A stretch of DNA of 23,040 nucleotides. It comes from a virus (taxonomy: Duplodnaviria; Heunggongvirae; Uroviricota; Caudoviricetes). The stretch covers positions 1-23,040 of the IMG/VR virus record IMGVR_UViG_2671181056_000005; one strand, 5' to 3'. Below, piece by piece: positions 18,702-21,844 of the stretch. Within the stretch, counting starts at the first letter, position 1; each line of letters starts with the position of its first letter. Position numbers and translations under genes: made by a program. The notes under the pieces were generated by a model. That model was not told the DNA's origin. It did not search any database and saw only the letters and a program-made list of their open reading frames with translations.

Positions 18702-21700
18702 TTATTTAGTTGCTTTGAGTTCGGCTAGCTCGGCTTTAGTTTCCGCAAGTTCTTTAGCCATCGCATCAAACTTAGCGGTCATTTCCTGCATAGCTTTAAT
18801 AATCAAGGCGTTGACAGCAGAGTTAGAAATAGTTTTAATTGCTTCTGGATTTTCTGGGTCTTCGGTAGATTGAATACCTACTGCTTCCGGCAATACTTCT
18901 TCCAGATCCTGAGCAATAATACCTACTTCGCGTTTAATCACACTACGATCTTTAAGAGATTTAACTTTATCGTAAGTGTAGACTTTCAGTGAGTTTACTT
19001 TCTCTAATGCACCGTCCTGTAATTCTTCCTTGTTAATCTTCAAACGGGAGTCAGAGCGAATGTAAACATCGTTAAAGCTACCGTTACGACCTGCGGTAAA
19101 GTCACCAGCAGCGTTAAAGTCAAAGTTAGTATCATGAACATGGAGACGAACAAGAGCGTTACCGATAGTACCGCTAGGAACGTGCACACCCATTGCTGCA
19201 ATGTGATATTGACCCCAATGAGTAGCTTTCCAGATGTTATGTGCTGAATCTTTTGATTGGGGGCAATCAACTTGCAAACCGGAAGCACGGTCACGCCAAC
19301 TAGACCAGCTACCACCAGAAACGTTACCACGAATCAAACCTTTATCGGACCCGCCGACGCTACCAGCCTCAAGATGAATCATCTTATCCGCAAGTTTCCA
19401 CGTCTGGGCTTGTTTCTGACCACGGAAGCGAATAACACCAGCATCATCGGAATACATCAAACCTAGTTCTAATCCAGTTGGATCTCTAAACCAGATATGC
19501 TTATTACCAGTGCGACGAAATTCAATATCAGCACCGTTCAAAAGAATATTGCCGCCAGTGTGAATTGCTTGAGGCTTAACAGTACCGTTGATGGCAAACT
19601 CAATTGCCGTAGTACCCGGACCGCCCGGACGTTGGGTATACCAATGCCAACCGCTTTCATCAGCACATTCAAATACTTGTTTACGAGCATCAGCGCCCCA
19701 TGCACGAATATTGAAACTAGAAGTAGCTGTACCCTTACCCCACGTTAATTTTCCTTCGGTAGTTAAATCCCCTCGGAAGTGAGCAAGCAAACCGCCAGAT
19801 CCGTTACGTTCAGTGGTAAAGTGAGTTCCGCTAGTGTCCTGGAATTGCAAAACGTTATATCGTCCGGCGTTACTATTCCCCCAATGGTTAATCGTGAAAG
19901 AATCCATCGACTGATTCCCACCCGCAGAGAAAGTAAGCAATCCTTTTTCTAAGAATACGTTATTACTAAAGCGAGCAGCACGGCTATCTCTTTCGAGAAC
20001 TAATGCGCCTTCGTTACCATCACCACCTAAAGTAACTTTACCGTTGGTTAAATCGTAAATGAATGGTCGGTTTCCGTTCCATCCACCAAAACGGTCATTT
20101 TCGGCAGTAGAAAGAAGATAAACTTTACCGCCATCATTACGCCAGAATGCACCGTAATTACCGTAAATCATACGGAAAGCATCAGCGTTAGCGGAATAAT
20201 ATTGCCCGTTTGAGTAAACAATTTTTGTTGCGCCAACATTCAGAGAGATCTGACCGTTAGTCTCTAATGCAAATTTGTTACTTCCTACATCGCTATATAT
20301 CTGCAATGCGTTAGTATCAGCATCACCATAACCAATCCAACCTTGACGAGTAATATTACCGCTACGGTTATCTTGGAATGTAATATGGTTAGATTGACCA
20401 GCCGGACGACGCAAAGTTAATGCATTGCTACCACCGTTTAATTCCATGCGTCCAGTAGTCACGTTGCCTTTATATGGACCAGCAACAGAGCCAGTAGAAT
20501 CAATCTGAAAAACATCAGTAGAATCGGTAACACCAGTAGCTAAACGATATGAACTACCGTTAACAACTTCATGCCAGATGGTCTCTACCGCTTGACTACG
20601 GAATTTACGCAAATACTTTTTATTGTGTTCCTGTGCTGTACACAAGCTGATAACGTCATACGTTCCCTGACCGTTATTATCAAACATCAACGTTCCGGCT
20701 TTGTTCTCGGTGTTGAACATCGTAATAATACGACCATCGGTAACACCAACAGAAGGTTTAACGAGAGTTAATTCAGGAACATCATGTACTGTCAGAGTAA
20801 CGCCATCAGTTTTACCGTATTCGACAATAACGTTATCGGTGTAACGACCGTAGTTAACGTAAATGTCGTAGTTATCACCGGAAGTATTAACCGCAAATAC
20901 TTGATGAACGTTCAGAGCATTTCGACGATAAGCAGCAATACTAACGCCTTTCGGGTTATTGTTACCGGAACGGATGACAATTTCTACAAAGTCAACCTGA
21001 TCATAAGAGTTAACGTTATAACCATTACCACCGAAGATACGAAGCATTACCATTCGACCATTCTGTGGGATCGTAGCGGTTGCGATCTTGAAGTATCCAC
21101 GAGTAGCATCACCAGAAGGAACGGTCATTCTAACGTTCTTGATGAACATCTGATCAACTTCGGCTTTACTATACACACCCAATTCAGTAGGAGTCGGTTT
21201 ATCACCTTCGTGATACATGCGGTAGCTGAATCGCTTATTACCATCTTTATCAAAGCCATAGGTTTTAACTTGAGATGAGCTAGACCCATAGTGGAACTCA
21301 AAACCGCGACCGTGTGCTTTACCGCCAGAATGAGGAATGTTAAGGATTAAGTTACCCCAACCTTCGGCATTGTTTGGACGGAATGCACCAAAATAATCAA
21401 GGTTACGAGCACCAGCATCATCAAAATAGTTAGCTGTTTTGGTTAACAAATACCCGTGATGGTAAGTGTTGGTATTCTTCTTGATGTAAGCAGCATCGGC
21501 ACTACCTTCAATAGAATCAATTCGCTGGTTAGCTGCGGCAATTGCGGCATCAGTAGAAGATTTATTCTGATCTACCTTGTTGTTAATTGCTGTATGGTTG
21601 CTATTAACAGTGTTGGTTAAGTTGGTGATCTTAGAATCAGCATCTTTCTTATTATCCGCTACCGTCTTTTCAATAGCTGATTTGTTAGCCGCAACAGTAT

Positions 21701-21844
21701 TCGTTAAGTTGGTAACGTTGGTATTCGTCTGATCAACTCGCGCATTAATATCTGTCTTGTTCTTGTTAATTGTCGCGTTGATAGTATCGCGGGTTGAAGT
21801 AATAGTCTGATTCAGTTCAGTCTTAGCAGCCGCCAGAGCGTTAG
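18702..21844 (-). pseudogene. Side tail fiber gene with C-terminal intramolecular chaperone (peptidase S74-like) domain; 5' portion cut off by the IS5 insertion
   Basis: C-terminal ~117 aa begin SDSRLK (autoproteolysis motif) and end in coiled coil; N-proximal TNLTNTV repeats; no start codon in the phage-derived part, the frame runs into IS5. Confidence 0.7.
21841..21844. other. IS5 target site TTAG (YTAR) flanking the left end
   Basis: Tetranucleotide immediately before GGAAGG; the second copy would lie just beyond the window end. Confidence 0.6.

Follow-up and report, generated by a model that had tools for sequence, protein, structure and literature searches.

The 23,040-nucleotide stretch analysed here (the window) is the whole of contig CXFJ01000065.1 from the Shigella sonnei assembly GCA_001255095.1. 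On its minus strand lies the native part of a tail-fibre gene (18702..21844), truncated at the 5' end and comprising 1046 codons plus a stop, and after it come the gene of a 157-aa tail-tube-like protein (18172..18645), a hairpin with a T-run that resembles an intrinsic terminator (18017..18041) and, two genes downstream of the fibre, the gene of a short gp38-type adhesin of 168 aa (17491..17997). The fibre gene is cut at its other end by an ISKpn26 element on the plus strand (21845..23040). The tail genes are of the siphovirus type, with tube, G/T-like chaperones, tape measure, distal tail protein, hub and J-like tip.

An intramolecular chaperone domain at the fibre C-terminus

The last 117 residues of the fibre open reading frame (ORF residues 954-1070; 18705..19055, minus strand) form a Peptidase_S74 intramolecular chaperone domain, recognised by Pfam, motif and predicted fold. 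The PF13884 profile matches residues 954-1012 (E=9.3e-14, 51.9 bits against a cutoff of 22). The motif S954-D-S-R-L-K959 stands 117 residues from the C-terminus and aligns with SDRRIK of S16 gp37 (6f45_A), the best solved relative of this part of the protein; its S, D and K are invariant across six aligned fibres. In S16 gp37 the cleavage site is DLNVS^SDRRIKK, and fPS phages carry DVYIR^SDGRLKI at the corresponding site (PMC7917993). Cleavage is predicted between R953 and S954, with S954 and K959 as the putative dyad.

Searching for homologues of the fibre C-terminus yielded nothing but fragments and short proteins, so that the alignment was shallow and the AlphaFold model moderate overall (pLDDT 73); within the chaperone, pLDDT reaches 81-95 over most of the region, with two blocks at about 70. 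The model is that of a monomer. Its predicted chaperone domain finishes in a long C-terminal helix, and the top Foldseek matches are the MyRF ICA domain (7dc3; E=8e-5, TM 0.66) and the chaperones of GA-1 (3gud) and endoNF (3gw6). An initial annotation of this DNA had placed an S74 domain with SDSRLK in the C-terminal 117 residues and proposed an HMM search for it; the search finds the domain, the serine motif is present in the alignment, and the predicted fold of the monomer agrees with both. The same PF13884 match is also on record for the source contig.

A gp37-type body behind a lineage-specific N-terminal part

Most of the fibre consists of a gp37-type body (ORF residues 155-953; 19056..21452, minus strand) homologous to the distal long-tail-fibre subunit of RB49. 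ORF residues 155-1067 are 70% identical over 914 aa to residues 71-977 of RB49 gp37, the tips of the two proteins are 74% identical, and the fibre gene shares about 78% DNA identity with Krischvirus gene 37. The top PHROG is phrog_1699, 'long tail fiber protein distal subunit' (E=1.7e-120), and residues 541-620 (nt 20055-20294, minus strand) match the Gp34_trimer module (E=9e-25), with the T4 gp34 structures 4uxe and 5nxf as solved counterparts. When the whole tail module was compared by megablast with isolated phages, the similarity to gene 37 was the only match. Judged by sequence, the fibre is closely related to the long tail fibre of the T4-like phage RB49 and is a T-even gp37 homologue. 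Homologues of genes 34-36 were found neither in the window nor in an intact relative.

N-proximal to this body, ORF residues 25-140 (21495..21842, minus strand) form a coiled-coil-like region rich in N, A and T, which is the site of the IS insertion. Its sequence has periodicities of 29 and 11 residues (z=5.5 and 5.0 against shuffles), and in the intact homologue an internal duplication of the form ...AKxELNQTITSTRD... is visible in the same region. TNLTNTV-type repeats, as initially annotated, are present here, as two exact copies of the heptapeptide at residues 68 and 97 and not as a long repeat array. The gene is an intragenic mosaic, with an N-terminal part peculiar to the lineage placed before a gp37 body like that of RB49.

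A short gp38-type adhesin

The 168-aa protein matches Gp38_N (PF21721; E=3.6e-15, 56.1 bits against a cutoff of 25) and phrog_1121, 'tail fiber adhesin' (E=1.5e-33); RefSeq names the identical sequence 'receptor recognizing protein Gp38'. A word-indexed search for homologues returned close E. coli copies only, and a profile search reached further; the alignment was made with the gp38 proteins of RB49, Dhakavirus, an Stx phage, Kanagawavirus and SSU5. Residues 7-48 are 64% identical to RB49 gp38, and both tryptophans, W10 and W23, are unchanged in the gp38 proteins of RB49 and Dhakavirus aligned with it; a docking role of the N-terminal tryptophans of gp38 has been described (PMC7917993). In the AlphaFold model an N-terminal fibre-docking domain precedes a C-terminal beta-sandwich domain. 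The N-terminal 48 residues have low confidence in the monomer alone, as expected for a docking segment, and structure comparison gave no close solved relative of the compact beta-sandwich. The polyglycine-rich receptor-binding domain PF05268 has no match in the adhesin, and glycine-rich segments are absent from it in the alignment; the protein belongs to a short class that includes those of P13374, SSU5, PEi20 and Kosakonia phage 305.

An IRSDxRxK chaperone is found in all five fibres used for comparison, four of which have a gp38-type gene directly downstream, the fifth being RB49, where gp38 lies elsewhere. According to the literature (including PMC7917993), the IMC-bearing gp37 proteins of T2, T6 and S16 depend on gp38 for receptor binding. 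By analogy, the 168-aa adhesin is probably the partner of the fibre tip, on which it would dock after chaperone cleavage. The fibre's own tip might instead bind the receptor once released from the chaperone, like T5 pb1, with the Gp38_N protein belonging to another structure or being a relic: RB49 gp37 is annotated as 'putative receptor recognizing protein' and its gp38 gene is about 100 kb away, a fibre occupies the same position in the distant relative DCP80, which lacks a gp38 gene, and here the tube gene and the terminator-like hairpin separate the fibre and adhesin genes. We nevertheless regard binding by the fibre's own tip as unlikely, given a docking domain that is strongly conserved, both tryptophans included, an adhesin that is evidently conserved as a whole (206 cluster members; identical sequence on 234 contigs), and fibre-tip and docking-domain sequences that track each other between this prophage and RB49.

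Tube paralogues and gene order

The protein encoded between the fibre and adhesin genes resembles phrog_158 (E=1e-20) and is called 'phage tail tube protein' by PGAP in relatives; against it, all Pfam tube families stay below their cutoffs. In intact relatives the fibre gene is preceded by that of a second tube paralogue, 277 aa long and extended at its C-terminus; the two paralogues share 30% identity (E=1e-19). The hairpin that follows the 157-aa tube gene is kept in 7/7 aligned relatives, and an in-frame extension of 39-41 residues after the tube ORF is likewise conserved in all seven relatives examined. One could imagine that the fibre, a tube paralogue and the adhesin constitute a single functional cassette, in which one paralogue builds a special fibre-mounting ring or collar, in the manner of T5 with its collar and second tube-like protein, and in which the 157-aa protein is extended by programmed UGA read-through; we consider this rather doubtful.

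The order fibre, tube, adhesin is kept in every related E. coli prophage examined, and 18 genomes carry at least 80% of the gp38-tube-fibre stretch. Fibre followed by tube, without the gp38 gene, is also the order in DCP80, which is the nearest isolated relative of the tip protein (38% identity, tblastn); since the DCP80 record also contains T4-like genes and may be composite, it was used for local gene order only. Being conserved across the prophage lineage, the order is the normal one for that lineage and not the product of a recent shuffle. A likeness to T5, with ltf upstream of a tube gene, was considered and dropped, as ltf stands at the distant end of the tail cluster in the T5 record.

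These results bear on the initial annotation, which took the gene for an intact lambda-style side tail fibre with an S74 domain, and its place upstream of the major tail gene for a sign of mosaic module reshuffling. The S74 domain and the neighbouring tube gene are both real, and the distal 900 aa have clearly been exchanged with Krischvirus phages, fibre genes being well-known exchange hot spots. The fibre also does lie directly upstream of a tube gene, but whether that gene is the major one is uncertain because the second paralogue precedes the fibre gene in intact relatives. Intactness, however, is contradicted by the IS and by the loss of about 130 N-terminal residues. The lambda sense of the name is not supported either: the protein is homologous to T-even gp37, there is a gp38-type adhesin gene close by, and no Tfa-type assembly chaperone family was detected among the ORFs scanned (8821-18645, minus strand). 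A recent origin of the module order is contradicted by its conservation in 18 E. coli prophages and DCP80. We therefore find this reading quite improbable as a whole, and favour a gp37-type fibre in the usual gene order of its lineage.

ISKpn26 in the fibre gene

The ISKpn26 copy is 1196 bp long and carries its transposase gene at 21913-22893 (Pfam DDE_Tnp_1, E=1.7e-35, and DUF772). It is 99.8% identical over 1209 nt to annotated copies (IS5-like element ISKpn26 family transposase). Its left inverted repeat, GGAAGGTGCGAACAAG, occupies 21845-21860, and its right inverted repeat finishes exactly at 23040, which is the end of the contig; the terminal 16-bp repeats agree at 15/16 positions. Because the contig stops at this second repeat, one flank of the element is visible, and beside the left repeat it reads TTAG. 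TTAG/CTAA is the target preferred by this IS family. The best IS matches run 13-17 nt beyond the boundary into the flank, an overrun that we attribute to ranking among more than 14,000 IS copies sharing the TTAG target; a different IS boundary was set aside as its cause.

The insertion explains the apparent extent of the gene. Read mechanically, the ORF begins at 21914, inside the end of the IS; since the element occupies 21845-23040, the first 24 codons are IS-derived. The native frame begins at 21842. Of the span 18702-21844 initially given for the gene, the minus-strand ORF end at 18702 thus stands, but 21844, which is out of frame, marks the IS junction and not a gene start. The RefSeq entry WP_252857901.1 corresponds to the IS-fused ORF and is an annotation error, in that a fusion has been deposited as an intact protein. 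In E. coli GN4741, whose intact related prophage lies at 2.80-2.83 Mb, the intact homologue (L001:12697-16227) has 1176 aa, and the alignment starts at about its residue 131. Compared with such intact E. coli prophage homologues, about 130 N-terminal codons, the tail-anchor part, are missing here; as the window is the whole contig, the lost 5' piece is not visible.

We conclude with good confidence that what remains here is the 3' 89% of a gene for a tail fibre, which belongs to a siphovirus-type prophage in Shigella sonnei and was most likely inactivated when ISKpn26 inserted into the N-proximal coiled coil. That the junction is an assembly artefact, the gene being intact in the real genome, is hardly credible, even though the draft contig finishes exactly at the far end of a multicopy IS and the IS-fused protein is a singleton among some 15 billion proteins: the join sits precisely at a terminal inverted repeat, beside TTAG/CTAA, the passage from unique sequence into a repeat with a stop at the repeat's far end is normal for a real insertion, and the contig is reported in two samples according to a look-up.

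Proposed working of the fibre and its loss

The intact fibre would consist of three parts: an N-terminal anchor with coiled coil of about 260 aa, now missing roughly its first 130 residues; a shaft and tip of the gp37 type, as also found in the T4-like myovirus RB49; and the 117-aa C-terminal S74-family chaperone. By analogy with T2 and S16, the chaperone would nucleate folding of the trimer from the C-terminus and then cut itself off between R953 and S954 by means of S954 and K959. One copy of the 168-aa gp38-type adhesin would then cap the exposed tip, and its C-terminal beta-sandwich domain would bind the receptor on the host surface. A remnant without the anchor cannot mount on the tail, so that in all likelihood this copy of the fibre does not work; adsorption would then fall to the central tip protein alone (8821-12597), which has a lambda-J-type C-terminal receptor-binding domain.

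Much is already known of fibres that carry S74 chaperones and of gp38-type adhesins, and both proteins have names in RefSeq, so that their presence matters little in itself. Of modest value, besides the annotation error noted above, is a clear example of exchange: nearly the whole of a receptor-binding fibre has passed between RB49, a virulent T4-like myovirus, and a temperate prophage of E. coli and Shigella whose tail is of the siphovirus type, and the matching docking domain of the adhesin seems to have been exchanged with it. A further modest point is that fibres bearing an IMC may rely on an adhesin whose gene is not next to their own, which is relevant to the prediction of host range from genomes.

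Comparison with known systems

The closest known system is that of RB49 and other Krischvirus phages, with which the fibre shares shaft, tip and an S74 chaperone carrying IRSD(S/A)RLK (70% identity over 914 residues), and where the gp38 gene is likewise not adjacent to gene 37. RB49 gp37 differs in starting with a region of about 70 aa that joins gp36 in T-even fibres, and in being part of a four-protein fibre on a contractile tail, whereas the body described here is fused to an N-terminal anchor and coiled coil of another kind, about 260 aa long, and is encoded by a temperate prophage that is of the siphovirus type and lacks genes 34-36. The adhesins differ as well, that of RB49 being of the long polyglycine type (258 aa) and that described here of the short type (168 aa).

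In tips of the type of Salmonella phage S16 and T2 (6F45), the chaperone is cut at the serine of S-D-x-R-x-K, which exposes the surface on which a monomeric gp38 docks by its N-terminal domain (PMC7917993). The Gp38_N domain and its tryptophans are conserved in our adhesin, but a compact beta-sandwich takes the place of the polyglycine-rich receptor-binding domain, and a tube gene separates the adhesin gene from the fibre gene.

T5 pb1, the L-shaped tail fibre encoded by ltf, is another lateral siphovirus fibre that has an intramolecular chaperone at its C-terminus, and the T5 annotation also lists a second tube-like protein together with a collar protein that serves to attach the fibres. Unlike the present gene, ltf is at the end of the tail cluster and not before a tube gene, and pb1 had no sequence or fold match to our fibre better than E=2; structural work on pb1 reportedly has it binding the O-antigen itself, without gp38.

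The short adhesin class is shared, at 30-47% full-length identity, with Stx phage P13374, Salmonella phage SSU5 and Kosakonia phage 305, in which the adhesin is similarly paired with a fibre ending in an IRSDxRxK chaperone. In these phages, however, the fibre gene is immediately followed by that of the adhesin, and the fibre shafts have no relation to the RB49-type body. Such pairs indicate that the module already occurs, and is annotated, outside the T-even phages.

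Truncation of the fibre gene by an insertion sequence

The tail-fibre gene of this siphovirus-type prophage is a remnant, truncated by an insertion sequence (IS). Its open reading frame (ORF), 1070 aa long, occupies 21914-18702 on the minus strand. The initial annotation had placed the upper gene boundary at 21844, where there is no start codon and where the end of an IS adjoins. The minus-strand sequence at 21844 reads ...CTTGTTCGCACCTTCC|CTAACGCT..., the portion before the bar being an IS5-family terminal inverted repeat. The stretch 21845-23040 shares 99.8% identity with copies that carry the annotation 'IS5-like element ISKpn26 family transposase' and contains a DDE transposase gene (326 aa, 21913-22893). 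Its inverted repeats, 16 bp each, are identical at 15/16 positions, and the second finishes on the final base of the window. The flank adjoining the IS is TTAG/CTAA, the preferred target of the IS5 family. Because 21845-23040 is an IS element, codons 1-24 of the ORF are IS sequence, in frame by chance. The window comprises the whole of contig CXFJ01000065.1 (23,040 bp; Shigella sonnei assembly GCA_001255095.1). It passes from unique sequence through a multicopy IS, and ends where the assembly graph would branch. RefSeq lists the IS-fibre fusion as complete (WP_252857901.1, 'tail fiber domain-containing protein', a singleton cluster); this chimera begins within the ISKpn26 end (21845-21914) and continues into the truncated fibre gene.

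In complete E. coli genomes, related prophages have the gene intact, at 1176 codons and in the same context. The alignment to the intact protein, with 83% overall identity, starts at about residue 131 of the latter. A conserved N-terminal motif, IQFKRTQTAGKKPTPEQLSQGEIALQL..., falls in the lost part; it fits the gp37-type PHROG profile at the profile's N-terminal end, is also present at the fibre N-terminus of a distant relative, Escherichia phage DCP80, and marks the presumptive tail-anchor segment.

A gp37-type fibre with a C-terminal chaperone

Described at first as a side tail fibre, the protein is unrelated to lambda Stf, and its homologue is the distal long-tail-fibre subunit, gp37, of the T4-like myovirus RB49: starting at ORF residue 155 and reaching the C-terminus, identity is 70% over 914 aa (DNA identity, ~78% over ~2.5 kb). 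A Gp34_trimer module, known from T4 gp34 structures, also lies within the fibre.

The proposal of a C-terminal S74 chaperone is correct and significant: Pfam Peptidase_S74 matches residues 954-1012 (E=9.3e-14, far over the cutoff), the SDSRLK motif corresponds to S954-D-S-R-L-K959, and the part from S954 to the protein end is 117 residues long, as had been stated. Among solved proteins, Salmonella phage S16 gp37 (6f45_A) is closest in sequence to the fibre C-terminus, in an alignment spanning SDRRIK. According to PMC7917993, S16 gp37 cuts itself at DLNVS^SDRRIKK, the equivalent in related T-even phages being DVYIR^SDGRLKI; the corresponding site here reads DVYIR-SDSRLKI. From this match to known cleavage sites, cleavage is predicted between R953 and S954. 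The AlphaFold model of the final 230 fibre residues has a pLDDT of 81-95 across most of the chaperone part, and among solved structures it best matches the MyRF ICA domain (E=8e-5) and the chaperone domains of GA-1 and the endosialidase. As for the TNLTNTV-type repeats reported initially, the heptapeptide is present, but in just two exact copies, 29 residues apart; with its N/A/T-rich surroundings and periodicity of 11 and 29 residues, the region resembles a coiled-coil stalk more than an array of repeats.

A gp38-type adhesin two genes downstream

Two genes downstream of the fibre gene, 17491-17997 encodes a protein of 168 aa that matches Pfam Gp38_N (E=3.6e-15, over the cutoff) and, over its full length, the PHROG 'tail fiber adhesin'. 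At the N-terminus, GWVGSSAV..TG.RWM can be aligned to the gp38 proteins of RB49 and a Dhakavirus with both tryptophans kept, and identity to RB49 gp38 is 64% across residues 7-48; the gp38 tryptophans insert into pockets of the gp37 tip (PMC7917993). Unlike T2/S16-type gp38, the C-terminal part has no polyglycine domain. Residues 49-168 are modelled as a confident beta-sandwich (pLDDT >90), for which no close solved relative was found. This short class also occurs in Stx phage P13374, Salmonella phage SSU5, Kosakonia phage 305 and Edwardsiella phage PEi20. In the three examined (P13374, SSU5 and Kosakonia phage 305), the adhesin gene is directly 3' of the fibre gene, and the fibres all end in an IRSDxRxK chaperone, as here. 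The gp37 proteins of T2, T6 and S16, which bear an intramolecular chaperone, lack their own receptor-binding domain and depend on gp38 (literature including PMC7917993), and in RB49 gene 38 is reported to be displaced from gene 37. From the conservation of the docking domain, the fibre pairings and the literature on gp38, we infer that the 168-aa protein works together with the fibre as a receptor-binding device of two components. The RefSeq names of both proteins are already correct.

A 303-aa E. coli protein, P0156, combines Peptidase_S74, Gp38_N and the Gp38 polyglycine domain within a single deposited chain. This chain probably represents a gene 37 that is cut short and reads on into gene 38, and offers another instance of S74 and Gp38 modules adjoining.

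Prophage context

The prophage is embedded in Shigella/E. coli chromosomal DNA and has a G+C content of ~42%. Regions 1297-2991 and 4965-6771 encode a large serine recombinase along with homologues of T4 UvsW (a helicase) and UvsW.1, and UvsY is annotated in one relative. With its UvsW, UvsW.1, gp37 and gp38 homologues and ~42% G+C, this temperate lineage has several T4-type genes in common. Two divergent ORFs (3065-4249, 394 aa; 4405-4974, 189 aa) each contain a CapR homology domain and may encode regulators. The tail-tip module (8821-14291) comprises a pb9-like distal tail protein (weak match), a GTA/phiJL001-type hub domain, a DUF6950 protein and a tip protein of 1258 aa, whose C-terminus is a lambda-J-type receptor-binding domain.

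The DCP80 record (PQ671644.1, 141 kb) is classified as a T4-like Gaprivervirus, and holds a prophage-related, siphovirus-type head/tail module beside T4-like motA, nucleoid disruption protein and endonuclease VII genes; either the assembly is composite or the genome is an unusual one.

Gene order and tube paralogues

In intact relatives, a second tube paralogue of 277 aa, with a C-terminal extension, lies upstream of the fibre gene (16309-17142 in the E. coli GN4741 prophage sequence), a region beyond the IS and outside the window; its DCP80 counterpart has 698 aa (6001-8097). Over its first 163 residues, the 277-aa protein shares 30% identity (E=1e-19) with the 157-aa tube-like protein encoded downstream of the fibre gene at 18172-18645, so that two tube-like genes flank the fibre gene in these relatives. 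The initial placement of the fibre upstream of the major tail gene holds in that a tube-like gene is directly downstream; either of the paralogues, 157-aa or 277-aa, may be the major tube protein.

Past the TGA stop of the 157-aa gene, 41 codons (TNEELPLPEPEPLPEHEAVVIPEVEEVTAKATAKRSRKAKN) are open in frame (18046-18174, minus strand). Both the TGA and the downstream frame are retained in six E. coli relatives, with a sole indel of 6 nt (in frame) and mostly synonymous substitutions; the DCP80 counterpart has a short Pro/Glu-rich tail with no stop in between. Judged by this sequence pattern, UGA read-through may yield an extended tube protein, or the tail may have been recently truncated. The tube and adhesin genes are separated by a strong terminator-like hairpin and its T-run (18017-18041), identical in 7/7 relatives aligned, and a GC-rich hairpin (18676-18694) immediately follows the fibre stop codon.

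The order fibre, 157-aa tube-like protein, adhesin, G/T-like chaperones and tape measure is present in 18 of 5426 complete E. coli genomes, at 85-93% identity. In DCP80, whose tip protein has only 38% identity to that of the window, a fibre with a IQFKRTQTAGKKPTPEQLSQGEIALQL-type N-terminal motif is directly upstream of a 164-aa tube-like gene. Kept at both distances, the order is a lasting trait of the lineage, and not the mosaic module order that had been proposed; since the RB49-like body follows on a lineage-specific anchor and coiled coil, the mosaic junction proper lies inside the fibre gene. T5 does not have the fibre-then-tube-like order. As a gp37/gp38-type device, the fibre with its probable adhesin partner is of a known kind; its genomic setting is less usual.
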